Shown here: positions 15,401 through 37,196 of the stretch, piece by piece
How positions within the stretch are numbered: the stretch's first letter is position 1
How the letters are laid out: every line of letters begins with the position of its first letter
Assembly: GCA_902795435.1 (NCBI GenBank)
Contig: CADBLE010000006.1
Location: 45,611 to 109,610, forward strand
Reading direction: 5' to 3'
Length of the DNA: 64,000 bases
From: an uncultured Pseudomonadota bacterium
GTDB lineage: Bacteria > Pseudomonadota > Alphaproteobacteria > Rs-D84
Made by a program: the position numbers and the translations under genes
Notes under the pieces: generated by a model
What the model saw: the letters and a program-made list of their open reading frames with translations, nothing else
The model's database searches: none
Told to the model about the DNA's origin: nothing

Positions 15401-15426
15401 CGAAAGGATAACTAGAAACAGAAGAT

Positions 15427-17040: not shown

Positions 17041-17367
17041 ATGCAAATTACAAAATTAAAGACAGAAGCAAAGGATGGAAACGTAAACAAGCAAGAAGTA
17101 GTATTAGTTTTAGATAATTATATCCAAATTTCTGGATTTATTGTATCTTTTGATGAAAGTGGCGAATTTTCGTCTATAGACATTCCTGTAAATATAGAGT
17201 TCCTGGATAAAGAGTTTGAACTTAAGATGATTGCTGATTTGATAAATAAGTTAAGTATGCTCATGCAGGCTGCCCCAGAGGCATTTGAAGAAAACAACTA
17301 CAAAGGAAGCAAGTTTGGGAAATACGTTAAAGAACAAGAGCAGAAAATATTGAATAAAGAATATTAG
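17041..17367 (+). CDS. Hypothetical protein (about 108 aa)
   Basis: The ATG at 17041 is preceded by GAGAGG. The track ORF starts further upstream at 16960. Confidence 0.45.
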   Translation: MQITKLKTEAKDGNVNKQEVVLVLDNYIQISGFIVSFDESGEFSSIDIPVNIEFLDKEFELKMIADLINKLSMLMQAAPEAFEENNYKGSKFGKYVKEQEQKILNKEY

Positions 17368-20445: not shown

Positions 20446-23232
20446 TTAATTCAATAATTTTTGAATTTCAGTTGTAACTTCAGATGCTCTGGTGACTTTT
20501 TTCCATTTTACGTTTTCTATTTTATCAAATAACTTTTCTTGTGCGTTCAAAGCAATAATGTCGGTATCTCTGAGATTATCGGATTTTGTTTCAACAAATA
20601 AAGTTAATTTTATATTATTACCATTTGTAACCGCGTAAACAAAATCAGGCGAAGTTGTCCCGCCAACATATGTCGGGATTTTTATACACTTTCTTGGTAA
20701 TTTACCGAAAACATTGACTTTATTGTCCGGAGTTAATTTTAACACTTCTCGTTCTATTGAAGTATCGTACACCTTCTTGTCATAAAGATAATTAGGTTCC
20801 ACCATCAAATCTGTAGCTTCGTGTGTTCCAACTAAACCTTGTGTTATTTCATCTACAAAATTGCCATCTTTAATAAGAGTTGTATTGGCTGAAAAATCTA
20901 AAGATTGGTAATTAAACTTCTGCATAAATGTAGACAAGAATTTTTCATGAAACCTTTTTAATACATTATCTAAACTGCCCTCGTTGATTCTGTCCGGGAC
21001 CATACCACAACCATACAATTCACACATTGCTTTATGCCATGTGTTTACGGGTATCAATGTTCGTTCGGATAATCTACGCATAAACTTACCATAACTCAAT
21101 CTGATTAATGGTGTACTAATGTGTTTTGTTGTAGCTTTTGAAACAATTTTTCCGTCTTGTGACTCTAAACTGTAAGTTGTAATTTGACCTTCTGAAGGGG
21201 TAAAAGATTCAAGTAAAGCATGCTTTAAAATGCTATTTAAATCTTCATCGGATATTTTGTCGTACACAACCATGTATCTTTTTGTAACTTCTTGCCAGAC
21301 ATCTTTCAATTTTTCCCAGTTTTCTTTTCTTAGTTTTACGACAGGCTTTTTCTCTGAGTTAACAGTCACAACACCTTTTCTTAGCGAATAATTATCTGGT
21401 AATAGTTTTATCAAACCATCAACGTCTACTATATCATCAGATGCATTTATGACACCAGCAAACAACAAACCACCTTTAGCTCTATCAACACTGTCTGCAT
21501 ATCCATTTGCTACCAAAGCTTCCAAAATATTAATATTAATCTTCATATTTTGTACTATGCCACCATCACTATTAATTTCATTAATAAGTTTATCTGCAAA
21601 ATCTTTTTCGGACCAATCTATCAAGAAATCTAATCTAAATTCTTGTGTTGATATACGTTTGTGATTTTCGTCCACAGGCAAACGCAAACCACGTCCTACT
21701 TCTTGAATTTTACTGCTTTCGCTACCACTGGTTCTTAATTTAGCAATAGTGAATACATTTGTATTATCCCACCCTTCACGTAAAGTCCATTTAGAGAACA
21801 AGAAGCGTCGTAAAACCCAATTCCCTTTTTCGTCTTTAAATGAAGTTAATTTATCTCTATTCCTTAAAATATCGTTTACTTCTGCTTGTATCCCGTCATC
21901 TTTTGCTGTTGCTCTGTCTTCTGCAAAATAACCACCATGTGTTTCCGCTATATTTGCTAAACTTTGTTCCAGGAAATCTTTATATTCTTGGTTCTTTTCT
22001 AAACCTATTAATTCCCTTAACTTGGCTCTTAAAAGACGTTCGAATGTTTGTTTTAGCCAACCATCTTCATTTCTGTATGACGCTATATTATCAATAAAGA
22101 ATAAGGTTAAGGTCTTTATTTTTGCAGGATTCATCCCACAATTTTCCCTAAACCAATTTTCACGTTCCTTTTTAAAATGGGATTCTATGGCTTGTTTAAT
22201 CAATAATTCTTGATAACTTGATGAAAATAGTGACGGAATTAAAATCATACCATCTGATAATTCCAAACCAGTAGATAACATTTTATTACCATCAAAGGTG
22301 ATTCCGCCTTCAAATTCGCTCGGCAAAGCATCACCTATGGCCATCTCATATCTATTACCAGATTCGGTTAATGTTAAACTTCTATTTGTTACTGATGTTA
22401 CCCTATATTTGCGTGCCGCTTGAGCTTGATTTATTTCTGGAAAAATGACGTTTATCCCTTTTACCAACCCATTATTAAAAGCATTAACAGCATTCAAATC
22501 ATATACAAGGTCTTCAAAATCATCTTTTTCGACCTTATTCCTTCCTGATCCAACTGTAATTTTTGGAAAAGTTGCACCAAATCTTACAATTAATTGCGGT
22601 TCTAATCCTTGAATTGCCTGCCAAGCCTTTGTTGTTTTAGCAAATCTGTGTGGTTCATCAATAATAACGACAGGTTTTACAGCCTTAATTGAATCAATCG
22701 GGCAAGAATAAGAATTAATCAAAGTTTGATCGTAATCATCACGTGTCATTGATTTGCTGATTAACATATCATCGTTAAGCAACAAGCATTTTATGGTCTT
22801 AGAATCATTTCTGGTTCCTTCTAAAAAATCCATCAAAGCAGCAGGGATTGTTTTTCGTCCCTTCTTTGTATTAAAATCACCAGCATTAATCATATCCAAA
22901 TCGATATGAATATTTTCATATAATCCAGAAAAATGTTGTTTTGTATCTTTGTGTGTGATAAAAGCTTTTGTGCCTTCTTTAATAGCCAAAGATGGAACAA
23001 AAATTATAAATTTGTTTAACCCGTATTGTTTAAACATCTCGTACATCATACGTGTATAAACATATGTTTTACCAGTAGCAGTTTCCATTTTTACATCAAT
23101 ATTCTGTTGAATATTAATGTTATGATTTGCATATGGATTATCGTTGTCTTGAACATTATCACGACAACCATTCATAGCATCCATAATGGCTTTTATCGCG
23201 TCTGATTGATGGGGCAGTTGTTCCAGATACAT
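20446..23232 (-). CDS. res: Type III restriction enzyme, Res subunit
   Basis: METATGKTYVY (motif I) and VIIDEPHRF (DEPH box). C-terminal PD-ExK-like motif TSPDFVYAV...LFVETKSD. Lies immediately downstream of mod (2-nt gap). Confidence 0.85.
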   Translation of the reverse strand: MYLEQLPHQSDAIKAIMDAMNGCRDNVQDNDNPYANHNINIQQNIDVKMETATGKTYVYTRMMYEMFKQYGLNKFIIFVPSLAIKEGTKAFITHKDTKQHFSGLYENIHIDLDMINAGDFNTKKGRKTIPAALMDFLEGTRNDSKTIKCLLLNDDMLISKSMTRDDYDQTLINSYSCPIDSIKAVKPVVIIDEPHRFAKTTKAWQAIQGLEPQLIVRFGATFPKITVGSGRNKVEKDDFEDLVYDLNAVNAFNNGLVKGINVIFPEINQAQAARKYRVTSVTNRSLTLTESGNRYEMAIGDALPSEFEGGITFDGNKMLSTGLELSDGMILIPSLFSSSYQELLIKQAIESHFKKERENWFRENCGMNPAKIKTLTLFFIDNIASYRNEDGWLKQTFERLLRAKLRELIGLEKNQEYKDFLEQSLANIAETHGGYFAEDRATAKDDGIQAEVNDILRNRDKLTSFKDEKGNWVLRRFLFSKWTLREGWDNTNVFTIAKLRTSGSESSKIQEVGRGLRLPVDENHKRISTQEFRLDFLIDWSEKDFADKLINEINSDGGIVQNMKININILEALVANGYADSVDRAKGGLLFAGVINASDDIVDVDGLIKLLPDNYSLRKGVVTVNSEKKPVVKLRKENWEKLKDVWQEVTKRYMVVYDKISDEDLNSILKHALLESFTPSEGQITTYSLESQDGKIVSKATTKHISTPLIRLSYGKFMRRLSERTLIPVNTWHKAMCELYGCGMVPDRINEGSLDNVLKRFHEKFLSTFMQKFNYQSLDFSANTTLIKDGNFVDEITQGLVGTHEATDLMVEPNYLYDKKVYDTSIEREVLKLTPDNKVNVFGKLPRKCIKIPTYVGGTTSPDFVYAVTNGNNIKLTLFVETKSDNLRDTDIIALNAQEKLFDKIENVKWKKVTRASEVTTEIQKLLN

Positions 23233-23234
23233 GA

Positions 23235-25070
23235 TTAAAATCTCTCTATAATTTCAACGTTTCCTTCTAAAACCGACTTCATGTTGTTTTTTAATTCCGT
23301 TAAAGTTTTAAAATCAAACGAATGGTTGTAAACAATTATTGTTTGTACACTTAATTCGTTACGCCCAATCAAATTTAACAATTCACGAGTATTATCGGTT
23401 GTCCATCCCACAGATATCAAATATAAACGGTGTGAATCTTTTGGTAAATAGGCAGTGTAATCACCAAATTTGATTTCTTGTATTGGCGTGGTCAAAGTAT
23501 ACCCATCATCAACCATCCATGTGGTTAATATTGTTTCTATCCCAGAAGCCATTAATTTGGTTCCTAAATCTTTACCAGAGAAAGGTTTAATCATATCATC
23601 CGCTAATAAATTAGGTTTAGTTGGATCAAACGTATCGATTTTATCTAAAACCAAATTATCAGATATTTTTGCCAATTTATAATGTTTAAATCCAGATTTA
23701 TCACCGATTTTATCAGCAGCCAGTTTTATACGATCACGGGATATTTCATCAATCGTTTTATATCCAGCTTTTTCTGCTTCACTGCCACTTGCAACAGGTT
23801 CATCCAATTGCACCATTATATACTTACGATTACCTTTATCTTCAGAATTCAATTGCATAACCGCATGTGCAGTTGTTGACGAACCTGCGAAAAAATCTAA
23901 AATTAGAGAATTTTTATCTGATGCTAAATTTAATATGACTTCCAACAAAGAAACAGGTTTTGGAAAATCAAACACATCATCAAGGGACAAATCTCTTAAA
24001 TTATCTGTTCCCAAATTATTCACATATTTAGAACTCATCAAATCATTTGTTGTCAATATCAGATTAGGATCCTTATCAACTAATATATTAGTTCCAACTT
24101 GAAATTCTTTATTTATATAGTTTCTAACTCTTAACGTCGAAGCCGTTTCTACTACTATACCTAATTCTATGGCCTTCTGCATTCTGTCCTTTGTCCAAAG
24201 CCAACGTCTTCTATTGCCTTTAGAATCAACAGGCTTATAAATTTTTCCATTAAACTCTATATCATAATCCCCACCTGCTGAATATCCTTGAGTTGAACTA
24301 GCTAAAATTGGGCTTGTATCACCCTCCAAATATGTACCTTTGTCATCATGCTTTAAATTTGTCAAATTTCTTTGTACAACATGATGAAAATCATATTGCT
24401 TGTGTTTCGTGTAAACAACAATATAATCGTTAGTTTTAGATATATATTTTTCCTGTGCGGGTCTTTGTGCTGAACTTAATCTAGGTACTAATGCGATAAA
24501 GTTATCTTCTCCGAATATTTCATCACATATTAGTTTTAAATTGGTTACTTCATTATCATCTATTGATATAAATATAGCCCCATCATCTGCTAACATCCTT
24601 TTTGCAAGAACAAGACGTGGCAACATAAAGGTCAGCCATGCTGAATGCGAACATTTGCCGTTAAGTGCACGCAACCGTGCAACATCTGAATCTGCCATAC
24701 CTAATTTTTCTTTTAATTGGGCATCTGTAAAATTAAATGTATCATTATAAACAAAACCATCCGACCCCGTATTGTATGGAGGGTCTATATAAATACATTT
24801 TATCTGTCTTTCATAAGCATTAACCAAATGTTTCAATGCATCTAAATTATCCCCTGTAATGAATATGTTTTGACTATCTTTATTTTCAGCCTTGTTATTC
24901 CATTCTTTATCAGGGACCAAAACAGTTTCCGTTGGTAGTGTAGATACAAATTTGGCGTAATCTTTACCAACAAAACGCAACTGATACCCATCACGAATTT
25001 CATCGCGATCAGGATTTGTAATTGTCGCATTTTCTATTTCTTCACGAATTGCTTTAAGTCCTTCAAACAT
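23235..25070 (-). CDS. mod: Type III DNA methyltransferase, Mod subunit (beta-class N6A/N4C)
   Basis: IYIDPPYNTG (motif IV) is N-terminal and LDFFAGSSTTAHAV (motif I) is C-terminal, with a variable region between them. This is the beta-class order typical of Type III Mod. Confidence 0.85.
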   Translation of the reverse strand: MFEGLKAIREEIENATITNPDRDEIRDGYQLRFVGKDYAKFVSTLPTETVLVPDKEWNNKAENKDSQNIFITGDNLDALKHLVNAYERQIKCIYIDPPYNTGSDGFVYNDTFNFTDAQLKEKLGMADSDVARLRALNGKCSHSAWLTFMLPRLVLAKRMLADDGAIFISIDDNEVTNLKLICDEIFGEDNFIALVPRLSSAQRPAQEKYISKTNDYIVVYTKHKQYDFHHVVQRNLTNLKHDDKGTYLEGDTSPILASSTQGYSAGGDYDIEFNGKIYKPVDSKGNRRRWLWTKDRMQKAIELGIVVETASTLRVRNYINKEFQVGTNILVDKDPNLILTTNDLMSSKYVNNLGTDNLRDLSLDDVFDFPKPVSLLEVILNLASDKNSLILDFFAGSSTTAHAVMQLNSEDKGNRKYIMVQLDEPVASGSEAEKAGYKTIDEISRDRIKLAADKIGDKSGFKHYKLAKISDNLVLDKIDTFDPTKPNLLADDMIKPFSGKDLGTKLMASGIETILTTWMVDDGYTLTTPIQEIKFGDYTAYLPKDSHRLYLISVGWTTDNTRELLNLIGRNELSVQTIIVYNHSFDFKTLTELKNNMKSVLEGNVEIIERF

Positions 25071-25108: not shown

Positions 25109-25624
25109 TTAAAACTTTGTCCAATCACCAAATCTGCTGGTCCGCGTTTTAAATTTGTTTTTAATAGTAATATGATGATCATCTGAAAAATCTTTGTATT
25201 TAAAATCATTAAACGTGCCATAGTGCCCTCTGAAAAAGCCTATTTTTTTATAACAAGCATTGCAAAGAGGTAATTTACGCATTCCACCGCGATCCAATCT
25301 GAACATATTAGAATTATCGTATTTTACAACCCCAGTATAATCTTTTTCTTCCCCACGGTTCTTTTTATTGCTTAATGCATTGCAAAAATACATATGCACA
25401 CTAACATCTCTGCTACTATTTTTATCTTCGCCAGGCATATACAAGAAAACAACCTCTCCATTTGGGGTGCGGAATAATTCACCAGGTCTTGGTGGCAAAA
25501 TATCCCCACGTTTGACCATATCATCGATAGATCCTCTAAAAACGCCTAAAGGCAAAGCACCAATCTTGTTGGCTATTTCTTTTAATTTTACAATACAACC
25601 TTCAAATCCGTTTTCTGTTTTCAT
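25109..25624 (-). CDS. Hypothetical protein (171 aa), last gene of the MotAB-like module
   Basis: 14-nt gap after the MotB-like gene. Two C-N-A-[LC] pairs (FCNAL, LCNAC) but no motif I can name. Confidence 0.6.
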   Translation of the reverse strand: MKTENGFEGCIVKLKEIANKIGALPLGVFRGSIDDMVKRGDILPPRPGELFRTPNGEVVFLYMPGEDKNSSRDVSVHMYFCNALSNKKNRGEEKDYTGVVKYDNSNMFRLDRGGMRKLPLCNACYKKIGFFRGHYGTFNDFKYKDFSDDHHITIKNKFKTRTSRFGDWTKF

Positions 25625-25638
25625 ATATTACCAACTTT

Positions 25639-26382
25639 TTATTTTAATATTGTTTCCATGTTTGCTTCTGCTTTTAACAACACTTTAAACTCAACTCGTC
25701 TGGAAGCTTTCTGATTTTCAGAACCATCTGCATAGGTGATCAATTTTGAATAACTTAAGCCGTTGGCTGTTACATATTGTTTCATATATGCAAAATCAGG
25801 GTCCAAAGTTAAACAATACGACAATACATTTCTGGCACGGGCTTGAGACAAACCCATGTTGTATAAATAATTCTTTTGTTCGTTAGTATATTTACCAGCA
25901 ACAGCATAGGGACCTTCTTTCATAACACATTCTTCATTAGAATTAATCTTACATGGTCCGGAAGTATCTGTATGCCCTTCAATTCTAATTTCTTGAATTT
26001 GATCTTTATATGGCATAATCGTTTTTATATATCTTGGAAAGAATTCTTTTAACTTAGCTTGGAATTCTTCTTTTAAAACCGCTTCATTTTTATCAAATTG
26101 TGGGGTTCTTTCATTAAACTTGAATGATAAATCTTTATTTATTTCTGCGTCCCACTTAGATAAATCTTTGCTAAATTCTTGTTGCAAATCTGTATATAAA
26201 TTCTCTTTCTTATCAAAATATTCTTTGGTTATACGTTCACAACGACCATGATCTGCATATTTTTTTTGAATATCAAGAATAACCGATACTGATATAAACA
26301 AGAAAACCAGCATTAAAGCAGTCATAATATCTGACAAGGATATATAATGCGAATTATCTTCTTTTGCATTTGAAAATGACAT
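25639..26382 (-). CDS. MotB/ZorB-like protein (TM anchor with conserved Asp plus OmpA-like peptidoglycan-binding domain)
   Basis: ISLSDIMTALMLVFLFI is a MotB-type plug/TM region with Asp. The C-terminus IRIEGHTDTSG...LSQARARNVLSYCL...RRVEFKV is OmpA_C-like. Confidence 0.8.
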   Translation of the reverse strand: MSFSNAKEDNSHYISLSDIMTALMLVFLFISVSVILDIQKKYADHGRCERITKEYFDKKENLYTDLQQEFSKDLSKWDAEINKDLSFKFNERTPQFDKNEAVLKEEFQAKLKEFFPRYIKTIMPYKDQIQEIRIEGHTDTSGPCKINSNEECVMKEGPYAVAGKYTNEQKNYLYNMGLSQARARNVLSYCLTLDPDFAYMKQYVTANGLSYSKLITYADGSENQKASRRVEFKVLLKAEANMETILK

Positions 26383-26398
26383 TTAATATACCCTTTTA

Positions 26399-27511
26399 TT
26401 ATTTGTTTTTCTTTTTATTGTCTTTAACTACTTCATCTATACGCTTTTTTAATTCATCTATGGAATCAGGCAATGTTTTAGAGGCGTTTTCAAGGGCTTC
26501 ATTAACAGAATCAAAATTATCAGTTAGTTTTTGCATTATACCAGCAGCATAATTGCCGGCTTCTACCATCTGCGTATTGTGTTCAACCGCAACTTTTTCA
26601 AAGAATCTATTAGTAGAGTTTTTATATTCTTCTGTCATAATATTGATCTTTTGTGTTGCATCATCAATCAACGTATTTACAGTTGCAATTGATTCTGGAA
26701 TTGTTTTCAAAGAATCAACAGCATTTATAGATTTTTCTCCCAAATCTTTTATGGCCTTTAATGGTTTGTCTAAAGATTCTATGTTTTCGGAAATAACTGT
26801 TAACATATTTGTTGTTTTATTGGCAACTTGATTCATTTTTTCCATTTGTTCATCATATTTTTCTTGCAATCCAGATAACAAACTAATTTGAGTCGACAAA
26901 TTATTTACAGATTCTGTAAAATTATCTATGCTTTCTGTAAATTTTGAGGAAATATCGTCTGTTAAATTATTTAAAGCTTCTGCTAAACCTTCTTGAAGTT
27001 GATTACCAAAACTTTTCCCTATTTTCTTTATAAAAACGTCAAAGTTGCCATTCATTTGTTCCAATTGATCATATTCACTTTTTTCTATAATTGTAGAAAT
27101 ACCAAGTTTTGATAACCCTGTACGTATCATTGAAAAACCAACACCAGCAATACTTGTTATAAAGGCCAATTTTAATCCATCTAAAAGATTTGGTAAACTG
27201 TTACCTATATCTGTTGTATCAAAACCTTTTAACCCCAAATAAATACCAATAAAAGTACCGAACATACCAATTGTAGGATACCAACTTTTGCTATAAGTAT
27301 GCTTTACACAATCGTAAATCAATAAACCTGTTAAAGCAGAAATAAAGATTATATTAATGATTGTCGAAACAAATCTGATATTATCTGTACTCGAACTAAG
27401 CACAATCACTGCAATTATTAAGATAACAGCCAAAGACAAAAACAATACGTTTTTAACAGACATCTTGCCTATCACTTGTTCTATATATGATTCCTGTTTC
27501 GTTTTCTTCAT
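26399..27511 (-). CDS. MotA/ExbB/ZorA-like proton-channel protein with helical tail
   Basis: Four predicted TM helices, including WYPTIGMFGTFIGIYLGL and LKLAFITSIAGVGFSMI (MotA_ExbB signature region). They are followed by about 240 aa of heptad-like repeats (TESIDNFTESVNNLSTQISLL...). Confidence 0.75.
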   Translation of the reverse strand: MKKTKQESYIEQVIGKMSVKNVLFLSLAVILIIAVIVLSSSTDNIRFVSTIINIIFISALTGLLIYDCVKHTYSKSWYPTIGMFGTFIGIYLGLKGFDTTDIGNSLPNLLDGLKLAFITSIAGVGFSMIRTGLSKLGISTIIEKSEYDQLEQMNGNFDVFIKKIGKSFGNQLQEGLAEALNNLTDDISSKFTESIDNFTESVNNLSTQISLLSGLQEKYDEQMEKMNQVANKTTNMLTVISENIESLDKPLKAIKDLGEKSINAVDSLKTIPESIATVNTLIDDATQKINIMTEEYKNSTNRFFEKVAVEHNTQMVEAGNYAAGIMQKLTDNFDSVNEALENASKTLPDSIDELKKRIDEVVKDNKKKNK

Positions 27512-27525
27512 TATATTAACCTTTA

Positions 27526-28143
27526 TTACATTTGCATTAACCTTGCATAAGTTTTGGTTTTGGTAAATTCAGGGAATGTTTTTGCAAAATTCTTAACTGA
27601 AACATCTACCTTTACACCCTTATCAAGCAATAAGTTTACTATATTTAACTTATTTAATTCAATAGCTATCATCAATGCAGTATAGCCAAATTTATCTTGC
27701 GAATTGATAGCTGCATGTGCATCTAGCAATATTTGTACAATTTCCACGTCACAATGCATACAAGCCAACATTAACGGGGTTGCCATAGAATAATCTTCCA
27801 GCTTTATGTTTATATTTGCCCCAGAATCAATCAAAGTTTTAATATTTTCTTTTTTATTTCCAGCTAAAGCTGCTATCAACGCAGTTCGTCCGCTATTATC
27901 TCGCGTAGAAACAGAGAGTCCTGCTTGTAATAACATTCTTAAACATTCTGGATCATCTATTGTATTAGCCGCTTTCATCAACGGAGTTTGACCTTCTTCA
28001 TCAACAATATTGACATCCGCACCAGCATCCAACAACTTTTTTAAATCAGTACTATTCTTAATAATACCTGCCTGCCAACCACTTATAAGTTTTTCTGTGG
28101 CTTGATCTGCTGTTAACGAATTTATACTATTCAATTCTGACAT
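27526..28143 (-). CDS. Ankyrin-repeat protein (about 5 repeats)
   Basis: Repeated G-x-TPLM/TALI-x-A...(D/N)V(N/S) units: GQTPLMKAA, GRTALIAALAGN, ATPLMLACMHCDVEIVQILLDAHAAINSQD, GYTALMIAIELNKLNIVNLLLDKGVKVD. The start codon abuts the SNF2 stop with a 0-nt gap. Confidence 0.85.
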   Translation of the reverse strand: MSELNSINSLTADQATEKLISGWQAGIIKNSTDLKKLLDAGADVNIVDEEGQTPLMKAANTIDDPECLRMLLQAGLSVSTRDNSGRTALIAALAGNKKENIKTLIDSGANINIKLEDYSMATPLMLACMHCDVEIVQILLDAHAAINSQDKFGYTALMIAIELNKLNIVNLLLDKGVKVDVSVKNFAKTFPEFTKTKTYARLMQM

Positions 28144-30897
28144 TTACACCAACTTCCATCTAAAATTAAACAAATCAACAGCGTTAACAACCATGCCTAA
28201 TCTATTACGCAATTCTTCTATTAACTGTTTACGTTTAAGATCTAATTCATCTTGAGCATCCCAATATTCTCTTTTCAAGTCTCTTTGTCTTTTTTCTATA
28301 TTAGCAATTTGCTCTTGTAACAAAAGTTTTCTGGAAGGATCAGAAGCAGTCAATTCTTCTTTGGTCAATCTTTTCAATTCCGCCTGGTTTTCTTTCTCTT
28401 CTCTTTCTAGTGGTTGTAATTTATCCGCTATATATTTATCAATCTTTTCCACTTCTTCACGCACAAACAATGAATTTCTTTCATTTGACTCAAACTTTGT
28501 ATTTTCAATATTTTTCTTTTTAATTGCCTCTATTTTATTAATTTGTTCATTTGACATATCTGGTATAGCATTTTCAGATAAAATTGATACTTTAAATAAT
28601 CTTGATAACATTTCTGGATTAACCTCATTTAAATTATCATCTATGCCAGATAAAACTAAATACTCTTCTTTTTCTAAAGTTTCTATAGTTACCAGCTGAC
28701 AATTACACCACCCAGAAATTCCTTTTCTAAAAGCGTCCTGCAACAAAGGTTCATTATTATTATTGCTCACATCAAAAAGCACCTCTTCAGATGGAATATT
28801 ATCATTCTTTGCTACATTTAATACATGTTCACTAATTGGATGAGATAAACGCAAAATTAAAGAACTATCAACATTCTGTCTTTTATCATCATATGTTATA
28901 AAATAATACTTTCCAATCGTACCGAGTTCTGAATTTTGTAATGTGAAAGAAAATTCATTATCATCAAAAACACCATCATCCTTAAGAATAAATTTACATA
29001 AATCCCAAAACATCTTCTGATATGAGGTTAACTGTTTTGTTGTTTCTGCTAAATTACCTTTTAATCTGTCCAAAACAGGTTGTGCAAAACCAGATAACAG
29101 CTTTTCTTTTGTTTTTTTGAGTTGTTCTGCAATAGCCTCTTCCATCATTTTTTGAAGTTCATTAAAAGCCCTTTCTATTTCTTCAGCTGTTCTACAGGTC
29201 TGATTTATTCTTAAAATACGCTGTTCTATATCTACGCCATCCTCGATTGTTCCTAAAACCTCATCAGAAACCCCGAACACACCCTCAAACAAATGGAATT
29301 TATCTCTTAAAAGTTCAAAAACCCTTTGATCTGCTTTATTAGATTGATTTACAAAATTTATAACTATAACATCATGCTTTTGCCCATATCGATGACAACG
29401 ACCAATTCTTTGTTCCACTCTTTGTGGATTCCATGGTAAATCATAATTAACAACGACGGAGCAAAATTGTATATTTAAGCCTTCCGCTCCCGCTTCTGTT
29501 GATATCATTATTTCTGCGTCACCTTTAAACTTTTCTAAAGTTTCTCTTTTTTGTGCTTTATTTCCACCGTTAAATAAAACTATTTTATCTCTATAACCAT
29601 TTTCTGTCAGATAATTAAACAAATAATCCTGGGTTCGTCTGCTTTCAGTAAATATCAACGCTTTCTTTAACGGCGGTTCCGCATCTTTTGAATTTTCTAT
29701 ATGAGAAAAGGTAACCTCTAAGGCTTTTTTTAAAGCCTCTGTCTTTTTATCAATTTTTATGGTGTTTGCACATTCAATAAAATGTTTAACCTTCGTTATT
29801 TCTTTATTAAGTTTTTCTTTATCTATTTTTCCTTCATCTTCGGTGGAGACTTCATCTATTTCATCCAGATCATCTATCATTAAACCTAATTTTTCATCTT
29901 CTTCAGAAGTATCTATTCCTGCTTTAAGGTTTTCTAATCTGACCAATATGGTTTCAAAAGTACCCGCAATAGCAGCCGAAGAAGATGCCAACAATTTATA
30001 TACAACCAAACTCACAAGCTGTCTTGATTTTTTTGGTAACGCGTACTCGCTTTCATGTAAATAGTCTTTTATTTCATTGTACAAACTAAGTTCTTCATCA
30101 GATGGAGTAAAAGGAAATGTAGACGCTTTACGTTTTGTATATCTTATGTATTCTAAAACATTTCGTCTTAATGTTCTTTTGCAAAAAACGTTTAATCTTT
30201 CTTGCAATCTTTCATCATTTTGCTTTATACCTGTAGTATATTGGGCCCTGAAAGATTTTGCATCGCTAAATATACCAGGATCAATAATTTGGCTCAAGCC
30301 GTATAATTCCATTAATGAATTTTGAAGTGGAGTAGCCGTTAACAACAGTTTCTTTCTACCGTTCAAAGCGGTTTTTAAGGTATTACTCATAATGCTACTT
30401 TCTTTATAAACATTACGTAATTTATGAGCTTCATCCATAACCACTAAATCCCAACAAACTGGCTGCAAATCCGCCTCTACCCGAACAGCAAAATTGTACG
30501 ACATTATTATGATTTTATCTTTAAGATTTAAAATCCCTTTTGAATAATTTCCCTTATCTACAATAACTGCTTTTAATCCAAATTTATCTTCTAATTCACT
30601 TTTCCATTGTTCTCGTAAAGATGCAGGACAAATAACTATCAAATGTCTTTTGTTTTCAGCCCAAAATTGAGCCAACACCATACCAGCTTCAATAGACTTT
30701 CCCAATCCTACCTCGTCAGCCAATAAAACACCTTTTGATAAAGGAGAATGAAGTGCAAAAACAGCAGCATCAACTTGGTGTGGCTGCAGATCCACTTGAG
30801 CGTCCATAAGTGTTCTGGATAAAGCCCCTAAAGTATCATCCTTATTGATTCTAGTCAATTCGTATGCAAAATATTTGGCCTGTTGTCGAGAAATCAT
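28144..30897 (-). CDS. SNF2-family helicase with C-terminal coiled-coil region
   Basis: LQPHQVDAAVFAL, LLADEVGLGKSIEAG (motif I), VVMDEAHKLRN (DEAH), LLLTATPLQNS, QRIGRCHRYGQ (motif VI). The last 350 aa or so are coiled-coil rich. Confidence 0.85.
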   Translation of the reverse strand: MISRQQAKYFAYELTRINKDDTLGALSRTLMDAQVDLQPHQVDAAVFALHSPLSKGVLLADEVGLGKSIEAGMVLAQFWAENKRHLIVICPASLREQWKSELEDKFGLKAVIVDKGNYSKGILNLKDKIIIMSYNFAVRVEADLQPVCWDLVVMDEAHKLRNVYKESSIMSNTLKTALNGRKKLLLTATPLQNSLMELYGLSQIIDPGIFSDAKSFRAQYTTGIKQNDERLQERLNVFCKRTLRRNVLEYIRYTKRKASTFPFTPSDEELSLYNEIKDYLHESEYALPKKSRQLVSLVVYKLLASSSAAIAGTFETILVRLENLKAGIDTSEEDEKLGLMIDDLDEIDEVSTEDEGKIDKEKLNKEITKVKHFIECANTIKIDKKTEALKKALEVTFSHIENSKDAEPPLKKALIFTESRRTQDYLFNYLTENGYRDKIVLFNGGNKAQKRETLEKFKGDAEIMISTEAGAEGLNIQFCSVVVNYDLPWNPQRVEQRIGRCHRYGQKHDVIVINFVNQSNKADQRVFELLRDKFHLFEGVFGVSDEVLGTIEDGVDIEQRILRINQTCRTAEEIERAFNELQKMMEEAIAEQLKKTKEKLLSGFAQPVLDRLKGNLAETTKQLTSYQKMFWDLCKFILKDDGVFDDNEFSFTLQNSELGTIGKYYFITYDDKRQNVDSSLILRLSHPISEHVLNVAKNDNIPSEEVLFDVSNNNNEPLLQDAFRKGISGWCNCQLVTIETLEKEEYLVLSGIDDNLNEVNPEMLSRLFKVSILSENAIPDMSNEQINKIEAIKKKNIENTKFESNERNSLFVREEVEKIDKYIADKLQPLEREEKENQAELKRLTKEELTASDPSRKLLLQEQIANIEKRQRDLKREYWDAQDELDLKRKQLIEELRNRLGMVVNAVDLFNFRWKLV

Positions 30898-30994: not shown

Positions 30995-31651
30995 TTATTC
31001 AGCCACAATACTATTATAAACAAGCTCCATTCCCATACAATAATCTTTGGTTGCTTGTTTATATTTATCCTCTATACGCTTTTTTTCTTCGTTCAAACTA
31101 TCCGTTAATTTACGAAAGTTTGATTGTGCTTTACGAATTTCAGCAACGATTTTACGTTGTTCTTCTATGCTTTTTTTAGGGACAGATACAGAAGATAAAT
31201 AATCTTTGGTTAATAATCTTACACTAGGTTTTTTACCTTCTTTTATCTTTTCTTGTTCTTGTTTTTCCAACATATCTTGAAATTCTTGACGTTCAAAGAA
31301 ACAATTAATAAACGCAGATACATATTCAGGAAGATATTCTGTGCTATTTAAACGTATAATAAAGAGACCTGAATTTGCAATAACTGGTCCGGTTAACCAT
31401 TCTTCTTTCACAACCATTGATACAAATTTATGTCTTATTGAGCATAAAATATCACCAGATCTTAATAATCTGTCTTGGAGAACGCCAACTTTTTCCCTTT
31501 TAACAAAGATTGCATCATCTATGCTTTCGGAAAAAACCTCTTTTGGTTGCAATACCTTTATATCGCCTTCCTTATCTGCCTTAATAGAGCCTCTAAAATC
31601 TCTACCAAGACTTATATCTGATATTTCACCCAATGTCGCAATTTTTGACAT
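30995..31651 (-). CDS. Type I restriction S-subunit-like protein (single target-recognition domain)
   Basis: N-terminal ATLGEISDISLGRDF. LRSGDIL. The conserved-region signature VSVPKKSIEEQRKIVAEIRKA matches IPxPPLxEQxxIxxxL, followed by a coiled coil. No hsdM or hsdR in the window. Confidence 0.6.
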   Translation of the reverse strand: MSKIATLGEISDISLGRDFRGSIKADKEGDIKVLQPKEVFSESIDDAIFVKREKVGVLQDRLLRSGDILCSIRHKFVSMVVKEEWLTGPVIANSGLFIIRLNSTEYLPEYVSAFINCFFERQEFQDMLEKQEQEKIKEGKKPSVRLLTKDYLSSVSVPKKSIEEQRKIVAEIRKAQSNFRKLTDSLNEEKKRIEDKYKQATKDYCMGMELVYNSIVAE

Positions 31652-31843: not shown

Positions 31844-33190
31844 ATGGAAATTAAAAAGTCATTAAAATTAAGTAGCAAAACAAAAGTACAAGAATTACAA
31901 CCAGATCCAAACAAAAAGTACAGAGTACACGATAGCGACCAAAGCGAATTATGTATTCTTGTCTACCCTTCCGGTAAAAAGAGCTGGGAAATTTATAAAA
32001 AAATTAAGGGCACTAACAAAATCAAAGAAACTATTTTGGGGAACTTCCCGGATTTACTATATGAAAGAGCACGTGCAGAAGTACAGAAACAACTATTAGA
32101 AATGGCTTCAAACGCCCTTAATCCTAAAGCTAACTTATGTCCAAAATTGGACCCTAAAACCACTTTATCAGAATGGTTTTATAATGAATACATTCCTAAA
32201 TTTTGTTGTGATAGAGATCCCAAAACAAACAGCAAAGATGAAGGGATGTTTAGAATTTTATTAAATAGTTTACACGATAAACCTATCTTCTCTATTCAGA
32301 AAGCAGAATTAATGCAACTACATAAACAGATAAAAGATTCTAATCTAAGCCCACAAACAGCAAATCGGGCAATAGGTATATTAAAAGCAATGTTCAACAT
32401 ACTAATAAGGGAAGATTTGGCTCCAGATACATTCAGAAATCCTGCTATTGGTATAAAATATTACCCAGAAGAAGCAAGACACGTATTTATAACACCCGAA
32501 CATCTGCCATTTTTTATAGAAGAATTAGAAAACTGGCCAAATCCGGGATTCATAAATTTCGTCAAACTAAGTTTGTTTTCTGGTCTAAGGGAAAATGAAA
32601 TCTTACAATTAAAATGGTCAAATCTGAAAACAATAGACTTAACAACATCAACTGTGACCCCAAATGAGGTTGTACACATTGAACAACCCAAAGGGCATAA
32701 CAAAAGTGGTGCGAAAGATTTTGCCATATCGGCAGAATTCAAAAACGTATTGAAACAAATGAATTCTATAAACCATAACCCAGAAGATTATTTATTTCCT
32801 AGTCGAGAAGATACGACAAAACATGTAAAAAACTATACACACGTTTGGCATAGATTTTTAGACCGCCTGAAGGCCAGATTGAAACAAGAAGGGATTGAGT
32901 TTCACGATCCTATAGACGAAGAACCAGACACATATATACAATATAAAGTCAATGGTAAAATTGTTACAAGAAAAAAACGTAAAAATCATATGTACAGAAT
33001 CCATGACCTTAGACGTAGTGTCGGGGCTTATATGATCAAGGCCGGCAGATCTTGTGAGCAGATAGCCAAGGTATTAGGAAACACACCAGCTGTTGTACAG
33101 AAAACTTATTCCCCTATGCTTAAAGAAGACCAACAGGTTTATCTTGAATCTGGCATGGCTGAACTTACTGATGCAATGAAAATAAAATAA
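31844..33190 (+). CDS. int: Tyrosine recombinase / phage-type integrase
   Basis: SAM-like N-domain. Catalytic residues are in the expected order: GLRENEILQLKW (Arg), HDLRRSVGAYM (His-x-x-Arg), VVQKTYSPM (Tyr). SD AAAGGAG. Confidence 0.85.
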   Translation: MEIKKSLKLSSKTKVQELQPDPNKKYRVHDSDQSELCILVYPSGKKSWEIYKKIKGTNKIKETILGNFPDLLYERARAEVQKQLLEMASNALNPKANLCPKLDPKTTLSEWFYNEYIPKFCCDRDPKTNSKDEGMFRILLNSLHDKPIFSIQKAELMQLHKQIKDSNLSPQTANRAIGILKAMFNILIREDLAPDTFRNPAIGIKYYPEEARHVFITPEHLPFFIEELENWPNPGFINFVKLSLFSGLRENEILQLKWSNLKTIDLTTSTVTPNEVVHIEQPKGHNKSGAKDFAISAEFKNVLKQMNSINHNPEDYLFPSREDTTKHVKNYTHVWHRFLDRLKARLKQEGIEFHDPIDEEPDTYIQYKVNGKIVTRKKRKNHMYRIHDLRRSVGAYMIKAGRSCEQIAKVLGNTPAVVQKTYSPMLKEDQQVYLESGMAELTDAMKIK

Positions 33191-33662: not shown

Positions 33663-33737
33663 GAGCCAGATTTCCGGGGCTTTCAAGACTTTTTGTTTTG
33701 AGGCCTTTTTTCTTAAATCCTACCAGAATCCAACTAA
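33663..33737 (+). repeat. Right island junction (attR-like) direct repeat
   Basis: GAGCCAGATTTCCGG followed by the 60-bp repeat at 33678-33737 (see 12041-12116). CAGATTTCCGGGG also occurs at 33434-33446. Confidence 0.85.
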
Positions 33738-33871
33738 TTCCATTAATTCTGGTTAAATCTGGTTAATAATCCTACCAATTTTATCGCTAGCTCTTTAGGA
33801 TTAAATTTACATAAATCTATTGAAAAATCCGCTTTTATACCTATATAAATAGCAATAAAAAAGGTAAAAAA

Positions 33872-34720
33872 ATGGAATCCAACAACACAGCACGAAAATC
33901 TATATTTGAAATTCTTGAAGACCAGTATGATTTCAACAAAGAATTCAGAAAAATTTCGCATTTATTTGCTTGTAATATGGTTCATATCAATATGTACGGA
34001 TATCCAATAGAGATGTTCGTGAATAACATTTTTTATAAATGGAAGGGGCGTGGCAGTTGCGTTAATTGTGGAGACATGCGAACAGAACTAAATATTGATA
34101 CGATATTAAAACTCCAAACACCATCTCAAAACGACATTATTTTATGCCTCGAATATTATTCAAATATTTTGTATGTATTTTTGACAAAGTGGGCCACCGG
34201 TGCAGATTCAAACTGCATTAGCAAAGATATTGAGATATTAAAAACTAACTTAGATTTATTAATAGACCATATGAATTTAACAAAACAAATCGTAGAAGAC
34301 GAAGAAAGGGTAATTTTAGTTTCTAAAAATCCAGCTGCAACTGCTGTCGCAGAAACCGCATCAAAAGAGATTGCTTTTGCAATACTAAAATACAATCATG
34401 CCTCATTAAAAGGTCAGACAGAAGAAAAACGTAAGTTATTACATTCCATTGCCAATGAGTACGAAGATTTGCTAGATAAACCAACAAATGGTTTTAGTGA
34501 ATATTTTAAAACCGCTCGTGGTTTATTAAATAATTTGAATATTCGTCATAATAATAAGAGCGGTAAAAATAAAAACGATCTAGTACAAAAAATGTCCAAA
34601 GAAGAATTGGAAAAACAATATGATGAATTATATCAACTGCTTCTGTTCTGTATTTTAACTAAGGAAAATGTAGAACGCAAAAAAGCGGCAGATGAACTTT
34701 TAAAACAAATAAAAGGATAA
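33872..34720 (+). CDS. Hypothetical protein (282 aa), first gene of a three-gene cassette
   Basis: Long ORF with no motif assigned. 4-nt gap to the next gene. Confidence 0.6.
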   Translation: MESNNTARKSIFEILEDQYDFNKEFRKISHLFACNMVHINMYGYPIEMFVNNIFYKWKGRGSCVNCGDMRTELNIDTILKLQTPSQNDIILCLEYYSNILYVFLTKWATGADSNCISKDIEILKTNLDLLIDHMNLTKQIVEDEERVILVSKNPAATAVAETASKEIAFAILKYNHASLKGQTEEKRKLLHSIANEYEDLLDKPTNGFSEYFKTARGLLNNLNIRHNNKSGKNKNDLVQKMSKEELEKQYDELYQLLLFCILTKENVERKKAADELLKQIKG

Positions 34721-34724
34721 TAAC

Positions 34725-35006
34725 ATGGAAGCTATTGGTGTTATATTATTTATAGTTATTTCTATATGGTTTAACTATTTTAAACGCAAATTACGTAGAG
34801 ATTATTATAGAAATGATTATTTAAAATCTGAAGCATGGCAAAGGAAACGCTATCTTGTTTTAAAAAGAGATAACTGGAGATGTGTATACTGTGGAGCTAG
34901 AGCAACCCAAGTACATCATTTAAAGTATGCAAAAAACATCGGTCGAGAACCGATCGACTGGCTAGTTTCTATTTGTGATGAATGTCATAAAACCAAACAT
35001 AAATGA
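34725..35006 (+). CDS. Small HNH endonuclease with N-terminal transmembrane helix
   Basis: MEAIGVILFIVISIWFNYF (TM helix), then YLKSEAWQRKRYLVLKRDNWRCVYCGARATQVHHLKY...ICDECHKTKH (HNH with CxxC...CxxC zinc pairs). Confidence 0.75.
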   Translation: MEAIGVILFIVISIWFNYFKRKLRRDYYRNDYLKSEAWQRKRYLVLKRDNWRCVYCGARATQVHHLKYAKNIGREPIDWLVSICDECHKTKHK

Positions 35007-35029
35007 CCTAATAAAAACATGGTGTTATT

Positions 35030-35812
35030 ATGGATACAACTAAATATTTAAGTTATATAAAAGATTATCAAATAGCTGTTGACAACATCGTTCCTTTAAA
35101 TGGAAATGTACCAGGATTAAACCTAAAATTGTTAAACAAACGATTACATGATGCCAAAGAGGCTTTTTTGTGTTTGCATTATAAGAATATGCATATGGAC
35201 GCCATGTTAATAGCAGGACATATTTTAGAAATTTGTGCAGCAATATATTATATTAAATCGGCTAAAGACAAATTATTAAACACAAGAATTTATGTTGCAA
35301 AATCAACCGTTCAAAGTTTGTACGATTTGTTAAACGTAGATAAAACAGAACAACAAGATAAACTATACAAAGACACGATTAACGATTTTCTTAATTATTT
35401 GGAAGATATGGGGCACTTAATACTAAAACCCATTAATAAAGAGAACAAAAAAGAATTTAATAAACAACTTGTTGCAAAAATCAGATCCGAAAATTTAACA
35501 AATATCGAAAAAACAAAACTCATCAAGAAATACTATGACAAACCTATAGTAAACGATTCCATCGTTTACTTTATAGAAGGAATGAAAGAAAGAGCAAAAA
35601 ACAATCCAAATGAAAATGTTCAAAAAATAGAAGAAGCTATGAATCTTTTCTATGTTTCTTATTGCAGAATAAAACACGCAAGTGCGTTATTATATCCAGG
35701 GCATTTAGAAGAAGATAATATTGTAATAGACAATAACAAACCAGAGCTATCTATCCCTGCAGTATTTTTGTGTTTAGATATGATATCCGATAATCCTGTA
35801 CATCTAATTTAA
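35030..35812 (+). CDS. Hypothetical helical protein (260 aa), faint AbiV/DUF5677-like N-terminus
   Basis: LNKRLHDAKEAFLCLHYKNMHMDAMLIAGHILEICAAIYYIK vaguely resembles the N-terminal helices of AbiV-type proteins. Not a confident assignment. Confidence 0.5.
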   Translation: MDTTKYLSYIKDYQIAVDNIVPLNGNVPGLNLKLLNKRLHDAKEAFLCLHYKNMHMDAMLIAGHILEICAAIYYIKSAKDKLLNTRIYVAKSTVQSLYDLLNVDKTEQQDKLYKDTINDFLNYLEDMGHLILKPINKENKKEFNKQLVAKIRSENLTNIEKTKLIKKYYDKPIVNDSIVYFIEGMKERAKNNPNENVQKIEEAMNLFYVSYCRIKHASALLYPGHLEEDNIVIDNNKPELSIPAVFLCLDMISDNPVHLI

Positions 35813-35870
35813 CACTATTCTCAGAGTAAAAAGACTAAAAAACAGCCAAAAACTCATAAAAATTCATTTT

Positions 35871-37196
35871 TTACATTTTTTCTTGTTTTTTCTTTATATC
35901 AAGAATTGTTTGAAACGTTCCTATCAAATCAGCTGTTTTCAAATCTTGTTGTAAATTTATTTGGGCTGTTGTTACATAGACATCTTTCTCTGTTGTATTT
36001 TTCTTTTTTGTATCCTCATCTACATTTAATTTATATCTATGTTTTTCCTGTACAGTTTCATCTGTTGCTGGGTATAGCAATATAGCTTTACCAGAATTAT
36101 GTAATTTACAATATGTAACTACCTGGAATATATCAGCATTGTCAAAATCACCGCGATCGCCTGACTTAAGTTTATATTTAGTATCAATAACTATTCCTGG
36201 TTTTTTCTTTTCTTTTTTAACAAACATATCAACAAATGTATTTGCATAATAATGTTGATTATCTGTGGATTCTAGTAATCTGCGTCCCTTTTGATACTGC
36301 ACATCATATATACCAATAGATTCACAATTTCGTTTTAAGAATTCAAATACAAATTCTTCAAATAAAAGATTCATATCCCAAATTAGTGCAATATTATCAA
36401 ACTGATGTTTTGACATATCCACAGAAGAATGTTCTAAAAACATCTTTGCCAAATTAAATGGCTGCGCAAAAACCTGCTGTGATCGATTTAATCGTATACG
36501 CTTTAAATCGTGTTTTGTAAAGTGTTTAAAAGATATATCAGAATATATGTTAATAATAAACTTTAATATTTTTTTATTGTGTGCATCTTGTGACACAGAT
36601 TGCAATCGTGTAGCAACATACAAAAACAATTGATTTAATTCTGTGTCTTCTGTGAAAGAATCAAATTCACAAAAGAACTTGGCTTTATTAGCTAAATTAT
36701 ACCTGATATTTTCAGCAATTTTTAATTTCCCTTTAAACGCAGACGTATTTTCTTCACAAATTTCATAATTTTTCGGGATAAAACGCTTAAGAGCATCAAA
36801 CAAACGATTTGCAAATACTCTGATTAGTGTTTCTATAAAAGGGTTTGGACACGATGTTATATTTGCAACTTCATTATCCTTGATATCCAGTTGTTTTGTA
36901 TAAGACAACATATATAACAAATTCTTTAAAATTTGTTCTCTTGAATCATTTTTACCCAGTAATTTTGGTAAAATTTCAAACTGAATATTCTTGTACTTTA
37001 TTACACCGACATAATGAGTTGGTTTAATATGAGCCCTATCAAAAGAAATTACATTATCCAAATTATTTCTTTCTAAAAAATGCTCTATATTTAATACAAA
37101 ATTATTATCATTCAAAAATTTTTCAGAGACAACAGTATCAGTTATCTCTGAAAAATTTAATTTTGTATGTTCAAAAAGTGGTATCGATACAAACAT
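35871..37196 (-). CDS. mcrC: McrC-like endonuclease subunit
   Basis: PD-(D/E)xK core GIVIDTKYKL...DIFQVVTYCKL near the C-terminus. Immediately downstream of the McrB-like GTPase (1-nt gap). Confidence 0.75.
   Translation of the reverse strand: MFVSIPLFEHTKLNFSEITDTVVSEKFLNDNNFVLNIEHFLERNNLDNVISFDRAHIKPTHYVGVIKYKNIQFEILPKLLGKNDSREQILKNLLYMLSYTKQLDIKDNEVANITSCPNPFIETLIRVFANRLFDALKRFIPKNYEICEENTSAFKGKLKIAENIRYNLANKAKFFCEFDSFTEDTELNQLFLYVATRLQSVSQDAHNKKILKFIINIYSDISFKHFTKHDLKRIRLNRSQQVFAQPFNLAKMFLEHSSVDMSKHQFDNIALIWDMNLLFEEFVFEFLKRNCESIGIYDVQYQKGRRLLESTDNQHYYANTFVDMFVKKEKKKPGIVIDTKYKLKSGDRGDFDNADIFQVVTYCKLHNSGKAILLYPATDETVQEKHRYKLNVDEDTKKKNTTEKDVYVTTAQINLQQDLKTADLIGTFQTILDIKKKQEKM

Follow-up and report, generated by a model that had tools for sequence, protein, structure and literature searches.

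A rare five-gene cassette, a probable offshoot of Zorya type II, combining a DrmD/RapA-like SNF2 ATPase, an ankyrin-repeat protein and an HNH-less ZorE homologue

A stretch of 64,000 nucleotides from an uncultured alphaproteobacterium of the Rs-D84 lineage (assembly GCA_902795435.1, contig CADBLE010000006.1, positions 45,611 to 109,610; hereafter the window) carries a real and rare cassette of five minus-strand genes that appears to be a so far undescribed offshoot of Zorya type II. Few defence systems are as widespread as Zorya, of which the literature searched describes three subtypes: type I with ZorCD, type II with ZorE and type III with ZorFG. The cassette joins a ZorA/ZorB-like pair (here ZorA' and ZorB') to an SNF2-family ATPase, an ankyrin-repeat protein and a small protein called ZorE', and these five genes probably work together as a single anti-phage system of Zorya type II descent. 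From the first gene of the cassette to the last, they are:

28144-30897, minus strand: SNF2-family ATPase/translocase, DrmD/RapA-like, 917 amino acids (Pfam, PADLOC, AlphaFold2, Foldseek)
27526-28143, minus strand: ankyrin-repeat protein, 205 amino acids, about five repeats (Pfam Ank_2 2e-30, Ank 1e-27)
26399-27511, minus strand: ZorA-like MotA/ExbB-type channel subunit with a short tail, ZorA', 370 amino acids (PADLOC ZorA2, Pfam MotA_ExbB)
25639-26382, minus strand: ZorB-like MotB-type subunit, ZorB', 247 amino acids (PADLOC ZorB2, Pfam OmpA)
25109-25624, minus strand: ZorE', 171 amino acids, predicted DUF8245 domain only, without HNH nuclease (transitive homology, alignment)

A preliminary description of the locus had reported these five minus-strand genes with gaps of 0, 14, 16 and 14 nucleotides, which the listing of open reading frames (ORFs) reproduces exactly, and the motifs that it quoted (LLADEVGLGKS, VVMDEAHKLRN and QRIGRCHRYGQ in the SNF2 protein, LSDIMTALM in the MotB-like protein) are all found in the translations. 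Its view of the locus as Zorya-like yet non-canonical holds as well: the core features of ZorAB are found in ZorA' and ZorB', but each of the types I, II and III, like DISARM, has defining features that the locus lacks. In single-profile matching against the libraries used, the five genes match no complete named system and no named Zorya subtype. Nothing resembling ZorC or an HNH-type ZorE had been seen at first, and the PADLOC and Pfam searches agree, with no match to ZorC and no HNH domain in any of the five proteins. A scan for promoters and terminators gave counts no different from chance (55 where 48 were expected, and 4 where 3.2 were) and is uninformative on the limits of the operon.

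The co-inheritance of the five genes was studied on related contigs reached by searching with the ZorA-like protein. The contigs encoding short ZorAs all carry the five genes in the same order, which amounts to eight further distinct loci (L001, L003, L004, L005, L007, L008, L010 and L011); L002, a repeat of L001, and L006 and L009, truncated copies of L005 and L008, were not counted. Two of the block-bearing loci come from named metagenome-assembled genomes (MAGs) of gut Alphaproteobacteria (sheep colon RGIG5256, SIG50). Outside the window's own subclade, identity to the proteins of the window is 57-61% for SNF2, 37-42% for the ankyrin protein, 42-47% for ZorA, 58-72% for ZorB and 37-43% for ZorE'. 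All-versus-all clustering of the ORFs of these loci leaves only the five families common to all, and the flanks are unrelated from one related locus to another (Fic, SIR2, NERD, DUF2130, a MmeI-type enzyme, terminase, a ParB-methylase, a WYL protein). The 260-amino-acid ORFs that flank the cassette in L007, L008 and L010 were considered as a sixth conserved gene and rejected, being mutually unrelated. Between the window and L001, the ratio of nonsynonymous to synonymous substitution rates (dN/dS) is 0.05 for SNF2, 0.13 for the ankyrin gene, 0.26 for ZorA, 0.02 for ZorB and 0.08 for ZorE', with dS of 0.5-1.0; values in this range imply that all five genes are maintained as functional. The five genes are thus under purifying selection and form one inherited unit. 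The ankyrin and 171-amino-acid genes are co-conserved with the ZorAB pair across the loci, the lack of such co-conservation being the observation that the preliminary description had named as contrary to its proposal. The cassette is rare, and it is so far limited to low-GC (guanine-cytosine) gut Alphaproteobacteria and unbinned metagenome contigs.

ZorE begins with a DUF8245 domain that contains a zinc site, continues with an HNHc nuclease, and depends for defence on residue H90 of DUF8245 (PMC13192584, a 2026 preprint). Direct profile searches with ZorE' returned nothing from Pfam, PADLOC (E-values up to 10) or NCBIfam, and the protein had first been described as an orphan with no recognisable motif. 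This is contradicted by intermediate sequences: ZorE' is 40-43% identical (BLAST 1e-36 to 1e-43) to the proteins encoded at the same position in L005, L007 and L008, and these fifth-gene proteins (169-172 amino acids in the more distant loci) carry Pfam DUF8245 and match PADLOC ZorE2 (1.5e-11 to 2e-10) over profile positions 63-158 of 283, which is in the N-terminal half only. When the short proteins are aligned with bona fide ZorEs and with the fusion proteins presented further on, four residues never vary, H77, C81, C121 and C124 (window numbering), which make up a putative zinc site; in this alignment the short proteins end just ahead of the HNH motif. From the alignment and the intermediates, ZorE' is therefore a homologue of the N-terminal DUF8245 domain of ZorE that kept the zinc ligands and lacks the HNH domain. 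It follows that the module comes from Zorya type II and is not a ZorC/ZorD-like arrangement; the preliminary description had placed the ankyrin protein where ZorC would be.

Relatives of ZorE' are scarce. A word-indexed search found only 4 close clusters, and an exhaustive HMMER search found only 16 relatives among 1.84 billion representatives, with 2 clusters of the short type first, then DUF8245-ankyrin fusions of 346-371 amino acids and a full ZorE of 258 amino acids. No full-length ZorE was found elsewhere in the window. The standalone HNH protein of 93 amino acids at 34725-35006 was considered as a split-off ZorE nuclease and rejected, since it shows generic HNH similarity only (E = 0.004) and lies outside the island repeat. 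An AlphaFold2 model of ZorE' was discarded (mean predicted local distance difference test score, pLDDT, of 41, built on five close sequences).

The type II affiliation also concerns the motor pair. The best PADLOC models are ZorA2 for the MotA-like protein (2.9e-24) and ZorB2 for the MotB-like protein (7.1e-71), so the pair can be assigned, as far as profile matches tell, to ZorA and ZorB of a type II flavour. ZorA' is predicted to have a transmembrane region at about residues 20-135 and a helical tail at about 140-370 (about 230 amino acids), in line with the channel protein with helical tail of the preliminary description. Residues 149-360 are also matched by the PADLOC ZorA1 tail models, the Pfam MotA_ExbB match is marginal (23.0 bits, cut-off 22.9) and the NCBIfam ZorA2 score is 48.8 bits (cut-off 700). 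The tail had been noted as shorter than usual, and the comparison of the 370-amino-acid protein with ordinary ZorA2 matches of 450-580 amino acids confirms it: the ZorA' family is compact (13 clusters at 90% identity, 356-405 amino acids, 43-98% identity) and a wide gap separates it from the ordinary ZorA2, to which identity is at most 31%. ZorB' has the OmpA-like peptidoglycan-binding domain (Pfam OmpA, 37.1 bits) and the transmembrane aspartate that had been attributed to it, Asp18 being invariant in 9 homologues; its NCBIfam ZorB2 score is 124.6 bits (cut-off 400), and its family is characterized by an insert of about 20 amino acids with two cysteines in the peptidoglycan-binding domain. 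The viral contigs of IMG/VR, scanned with the ZorA alignment, contain no relatives, and so give no sign of a phage-borne cassette.

One pair of loci shows a local anomaly in zorA. The cassettes of L001 and L003 are 99-100% identical in nucleotide sequence except for a patch of about 500 nucleotides in the transmembrane region of ZorA (L001 8126-9226, L003 8111-9226), where nucleotide identity is 68-90%; the two ZorAs are 86% identical in amino acids, and dN/dS in the patch is 0.94. The L001 version changes residues that are otherwise invariant (SWYPTIGM to SLYLTIGM). The sensor part of the motor could have a hot spot of recombination or diversification here, or the patch could be a sign of decay.

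The ankyrin protein has about five repeats and its ATG abuts the helicase stop codon in the window, as initially described and confirmed by Pfam Ank_2 and the ORF listing. In the window, L001-L005, L007 and L008, its first codon directly adjoins or overlaps the stop codon of SNF2, and the two genes are translationally coupled. Homologues of 190-205 amino acids (37-42% identity) hold the same position in all related loci. Only generic ankyrin models are matched: PADLOC PDC-M72A, PADLOC 'Ankyrin' and NCBIfam MzaA, from the MZA system. Ankyrin repeats are thus represented in defence catalogues, whereas the preliminary description knew of no described prokaryotic defence system with such repeats as a core component. 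PDC-M72A (5e-27) was considered as a named candidate system and rejected as a generic ankyrin match, the DUF8245-ankyrin fusions not matching it. The cassette protein is, on the other hand, homologous to the C-terminal ankyrin part of these fusions (profile-profile match at 98.7%, E = 2.8e-16).

The SNF2 protein carries the Pfam domains SNF2-rel_dom (1e-35) and Helicase_C (3e-22), and its GLGK and DEAH catalytic residues are invariant in the alignment. It is not a counterpart of ZorD: PADLOC favors DrmD (8.2e-179, 594.6 bits) by far over ZorD (1.6e-39), and the NCBIfam ZorD score is 80.4 bits for a cut-off of 1500. The NCBIfam model DISARM_DrmD_b gives 591.7 bits, over residues 28-627 only and below its cut-off of 950. 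The AlphaFold2 model (pLDDT 80, 76 homologues) shows, past the core, long helices (571-637), a beta-rich domain (about 640-777 and 903-916) and an antiparallel coiled-coil hairpin inserted at 783-898. The coiled-coil C-terminus of about 350 amino acids of the preliminary description is therefore correct as to the hairpin, but the region also includes helices and a beta-rich domain. The top Foldseek match, over the full length of the model, is E. coli RapA, the RNA-polymerase-recycling Swi2/Snf2 ATPase (TM-score 0.46-0.56, E = 1e-25, about 1000 columns, 17-19% identity), while ZorD (8qy7) comes at rank 49 with 565 aligned columns. No nuclease domain is seen in the model, and a C-terminal nuclease was rejected as a candidate after Foldseek on the full model gave RapA and chromatin remodellers only. 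The helicase is DrmD/RapA-like, not ZorD-like.

The full-length architecture of this SNF2 protein is common to thousands of proteins at 43-46% identity. The homologues examined at 45-59% identity (L016-L021) lead operons of the Type III restriction-modification (R-M) class that lack an ankyrin gene and are made up of SNF2, the methyltransferase Mod (about 990 amino acids; PADLOC MTase_III 1.5e-218) and the subunit Res (about 1046 amino acids; REase_III 3e-193). In a neighbour-joining tree, the Zorya-linked SNF2s form a single clade (bootstrap 100/100) apart from the Mod/Res-linked ones, and their sister clade is made up of the SNF2s of these SNF2-Mod-Res triads. It follows from the monophyly of the Zorya-linked SNF2s that the helicase was captured once, and that it has since travelled with the ankyrin, ZorAB and ZorE' genes. 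Type III genes also follow the cassette in the window:

23235-25070, minus strand: Type III R-M methyltransferase Mod, 611 amino acids (PADLOC MTase_III 5.9e-176; Pfam N6_N4_Mtase and T3RM_EcoP15I_C)
20446-23232, minus strand: Type III R-M Res, 928 amino acids (PADLOC REase_III 4.9e-271; Pfam ResIII and RE_endonuc)

Mod, which the preliminary description had missed, starts 38 nucleotides downstream of ZorE' and is possibly co-transcribed with the cassette; it is outside the conserved five-gene block. A 57-amino-acid remnant of its N-terminus, 52% identical to Mod residues 5-75, follows the cassette in L001-L004, and Mod is absent from L005-L011. This Mod was part of the ancestral locus in the closest relatives, and a tie to R-M persists to some extent in the window's own subclade. 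The window's Mod (PDLC03641) and Res (PDLC03649) belong to other subfamilies than those of the triads (PDLC03646, PDLC03654).

A sister variant was found in Candidatus Enterousia and a related MAG (L012-L015). It consists of a ZorA of ordinary length (474-476 amino acids), a ZorB and a fusion protein of 386-396 amino acids that combines DUF8245 (ZorE2 matches down to 2.7e-15), an HNH zinc ribbon (CxxC..CxxC) without the catalytic His/Asn, and ankyrin repeats. The fusion genes are present in L013 and L014 and at the following positions:

L012, 12121-13311: DUF8245-ankyrin fusion protein
L015, 12001-13161: DUF8245-ankyrin fusion protein

Outside the clade of ZorE', an exhaustive HMMER search finds no closer relatives of it than the fusion proteins. 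A UvrD/GajB-like helicase adjoins the operon in all four loci, in two arrangements, and three of them (L012, L014 and L015) also have a WYL regulator no more than about 2 kb away from the operon. This operon is a second undescribed variant of Zorya type II. The two architectures occur in the same host group, and each of them unites a helicase with ZorAB, DUF8245 and ankyrin repeats but is without a functional HNH. It is mainly this shared combination that leads us to propose ZorE' and the ankyrin protein as a joint adaptor for a helicase effector.

Full-length ZorEs (DUF8245 and HNH, 246-254 amino acids) are encoded directly upstream of SNF2 in three of the related loci:

L005, 5826-6566: full-length ZorE (PADLOC ZorE2 1.6e-50)
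L008, 2359-3114: full-length ZorE
L010, 5749-6486: full-length ZorE, 71% identical to the L005 copy

Since these loci carry ZorE' as well, each of them has a pair of DUF8245 paralogues, of which only one contains the nuclease.

The likeness to Zorya type II thus includes the best models of the motor pair, the order of ZorA, ZorB and the third gene, the DUF8245 homology of this third gene with its zinc ligands, and the presence of bona fide ZorEs in some relatives. Contrary to type II, the third gene lacks the HNH, the catalytic part of ZorE; the genes inherited together are five instead of three, with SNF2 and ankyrin always preceding zorA; and the family differs by its shorter ZorA and the Cys-containing insert of ZorB. 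With type I, the cassette shares the association of a ZorAB-type motor with an SNF2-family ATPase, but no ZorC model is matched by the proteins of the locus or its neighbours (PADLOC), and the SNF2 protein is not ZorD, lacks a ZorD-like nuclease and N-terminal region, and is encoded first instead of last. The ZorF (DUF3348) and ZorG (DUF2894) proteins of type III have no PADLOC or Pfam match in the locus. Outside Zorya, the SNF2 core (28-627) scores best against the DrmD models of class 1 DISARM, but the cut-off is not reached and the C-terminal third is not covered by DrmD_b. Among the island ORFs of at least 135 amino acids, PADLOC and Pfam give no match to DrmB, DrmC or DrmMI, and DrmA is matched by the SNF2 protein alone, with a score much lower than that for DrmD. 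The triads are led by full-length relatives of the cassette SNF2; yet four genes separate SNF2 from Mod in the window, the Mod and Res subfamilies differ, and the SNF2s belong to another clade. The Zorya-linked helicase gene is, unlike those of the triads and DISARM, followed by an ankyrin gene and not by a methyltransferase gene. The sister variant has the same modules, in the same host group and likewise without the HNH catalytic residues, but it holds DUF8245 and ankyrin repeats in one polypeptide that keeps the HNH zinc ribbon, its helicase is a superfamily 1 (SF1) UvrD/GajB-like protein and its ZorA has the ordinary length. As for RapA, the best structural match of the SNF2 protein, C-terminal region included, identity is low, the genomic context is wholly different and there is no sign of RNA polymerase binding. 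In the literature searched, no paper ties Zorya to ankyrin proteins, none besides PMC13192584 deals with DUF8245, and no such subtype is described.

Several properties of characterised Zorya systems are relevant to the function of the cassette. ZorA5B2 is a motor driven by protons, which phage attack causes to anchor to peptidoglycan (PMC11890865, PMC11946911); through the ZorA tail, ZorAB recruits soluble effectors (PMC11946911) and activates them close to the membrane (PMC11890865, PMC11946911), and in type II it directs the ZorE nickase to the membrane upon infection (PMC11890865). The type II ZorE also cooperates with the helicase-nuclease of Druantia III (PMC13192584), a loose precedent for the cassette. 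By homology, ZorA' and ZorB' would form an inner-membrane, proton-driven motor of the ZorA5B2 type, in which ZorB' would supply the channel Asp18 and anchor to peptidoglycan through its OmpA-like domain, and the helical tail of ZorA' would relay the envelope perturbation caused by phage entry. ZorE' would replace the DUF8245-HNH nickase: with its zinc site kept and no DNA cutting, it may couple to the activated motor as an adaptor or DNA-engaging module. The ankyrin protein would then link ZorE' to the SNF2 ATPase, and this RapA/DrmD-like translocase may act on incoming DNA near the membrane. One possibility is that it displaces proteins or blocks replication or transcription without cutting. 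Alternatively, it could hand the DNA to a nuclease in trans, such as the Type III R-M in the window or, in some relatives, the full ZorE encoded just before SNF2. The motor and adaptor steps draw on the homology to characterised ZorAB and ZorE, and the bridge and effector steps on gene fusion, gene order and co-inheritance. In a more general and more tentative interpretation, the cassette may represent a fourth Zorya architecture whose output, judging by domain searches, is not a nuclease: DUF8245 would be a general effector plug, the HNH would have been swapped for an ankyrin adaptor recruiting a translocase (SNF2 here, UvrD-like in the sister variant), and the motor would tether the helicase to phage DNA.

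A number of observations weigh against a single system derived from type II. All the evidence is comparative, and the related loci, known from metagenomes, represent a narrow group, the gut Alphaproteobacteria MAGs. None of the five proteins reaches an NCBIfam equivalog cut-off, and ZorE', having no direct profile match, is related to ZorE by transitive homology. No nuclease domain is recognisable in the five proteins by PADLOC, Pfam and NCBIfam, nor by AlphaFold2 and Foldseek for SNF2, the result for ZorE' resting on sequence searches as its model is unusable. Moreover, the 162-position PADLOC ZorE2 model PDLC00646 covers the DUF8245 part only, from which it seems probable that HNH-less ZorEs are already present among the loci classed as type II; this may lower the novelty of that single feature. 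Finally, the nearest outside relatives of the SNF2 protein work with Type III Mod and Res, which also directly follow the cassette, so that the helicase could belong wholly or also to an R-M-type system.

The last point can be extended to a scenario of two neighbouring systems, in which SNF2, perhaps with the ankyrin protein, serves a Type III-like R-M system as accessory helicase, and the ankyrin, ZorA, ZorB and ZorE' genes were inserted between SNF2 and Mod, the two systems being independent or at most synergistic. The SNF2 homologues directly upstream of Mod and Res in L016-L021 suggest it, in particular L021, where SNF2-Mod-Res occupies the place of the cassette on the same island backbone; so do the short distance between ZorE' and Mod, with no terminator predicted between them (by a scan at chance level), the Mod remnant at the same place in L001-L004, and the fact that Zorya II co-localises and synergises with helicase-containing systems. 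Nevertheless, SNF2 is intact and under purifying selection in L005, L007, L008, L010 and L011, where the 8-10 kb retrieved per side contain no homologue of a Type III Mod or Res, the Zorya-linked SNF2s form their own fully supported clade, and the Mod and Res of the window are of other subfamilies than those of the triads. The ankyrin gene, coupled to SNF2, encodes a homologue of the part that is fused to DUF8245 in the sister variant. Two separate systems therefore seem rather unlikely.

Another explanation would be that the cassette is a relic of Zorya type II that lost its effector nuclease and is kept by its linkage to functional defence neighbours, with no defence of its own. The absence of the HNH and of any recognisable nuclease domain in the five proteins would fit such a decay, as would the rarity of the family (13 ZorA clusters, 16 ZorE' matches) and the altered residues in the ZorA patch of L001/L003. 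Yet all five ORFs are intact in eight other loci at identities down to 37-72% depending on the protein, dN/dS remains at 0.02-0.26 for dS of 0.5-1.0, and the SNF2 GLGK/DEAH residues and the ZorB D18 are invariant. Since the flanks vary, linkage to a constant neighbour cannot explain the retention of the genes, and a relic appears improbable. A role outside defence, in which a ZorAB-like stator and a DNA translocase would serve an envelope-linked DNA transaction of a mobile element (control of entry or exit, maintenance), would account for the fact that the cassette always sits in mobile or variable regions (an island with an integrase in the window, terminase and ParB-methylase neighbours in L005 and L007) and for the resemblance of SNF2 to RapA, which is no defence protein. 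However, the great majority of the neighbouring genes serve defence (Type III R-M, an MkoA/C-like helicase with DUF2726, McrC, SIR2, NERD, AbiEii, MmeI, a WYL protein) and every characterised tailed ZorAB homologue is anti-phage (PMC11890865, PMC11946911), which makes this role very improbable.

If the five genes are indeed one system derived from type II, they represent a natural domain dissection of ZorE, with DUF8245 either alone or fused to ankyrin repeats and a dead HNH. DUF8245 would then be predicted to act as a motor- or DNA-coupling module whose effector is exchangeable, which bears on how the ZorAB motor communicates with soluble effectors. The family also shows how a helicase passed from a Type III-like R-M setting to a Zorya one. 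Judging by the single-profile searches, in which the third gene has no ZorE match and the helicase matches DrmD best, current defence annotation may have a blind spot for such loci.

The cassette lies in an integrative island of 21.6 kb, delimited by two copies of a 91-nucleotide repeat that are 89% identical and spaced by 21621 nucleotides. The defence-island setting proposed in the preliminary description is supported by the neighbours of the cassette, which include the Type III R-M and the MkoA/C-like helicase. Besides the genes already listed, the island and its surroundings contain:

11971-12046: tRNA-Asn
12057-12147: left direct repeat, 91 nucleotides, starting 10 nucleotides past tRNA-Asn (repeat search)
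12362-16810: island ORFs of 414, 324 and 280 amino acids, without Pfam or PADLOC matches
17364-17918, minus strand: ORF of 184 amino acids without matches, after the SF1 helicase (ORF listing)
17921-20431, minus strand: SF1 helicase (AAA_11/AAA_12) with C-terminal DUF2726, after Res (PADLOC MkoC/MkoA 1e-50)
30995-31651, minus strand: protein of 218 amino acids similar to a single target-recognition half of Type I HsdS / mad5, between the integrase and SNF2 (PADLOC 2e-11)
31844-33190, plus strand: tyrosine integrase of the island (Pfam Phage_integrase, Arm-DNA-bind_3, Int_N)
33678-33768: right direct repeat, 91 nucleotides, just outside the integrase gene (repeat search)
within 33872-37196: protein of 282 amino acids without matches, outside the island repeat
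34725-35006: standalone HNH protein, 93 amino acids, outside the island repeat
35030-35812: protein of 260 amino acids, outside the island repeat, 69% identical to the ORF following the cassette in L008
35871-37196: McrC-like protein, outside the island repeat (Pfam McrBC 6.5e-62)

The SF1 helicase with DUF2726 may be another defence gene of the island, and further defence genes flank it. The island ORFs examined include neither HsdM nor HsdR. L021 carries the same island backbone, with an integrase 99% identical and a 218-amino-acid HsdS-like protein 96% identical to those of the window, and has SNF2, Type III Mod, Res and an SF1 helicase as cargo instead. This shared backbone with a different cargo suggests that the island family swaps its defence cargo.

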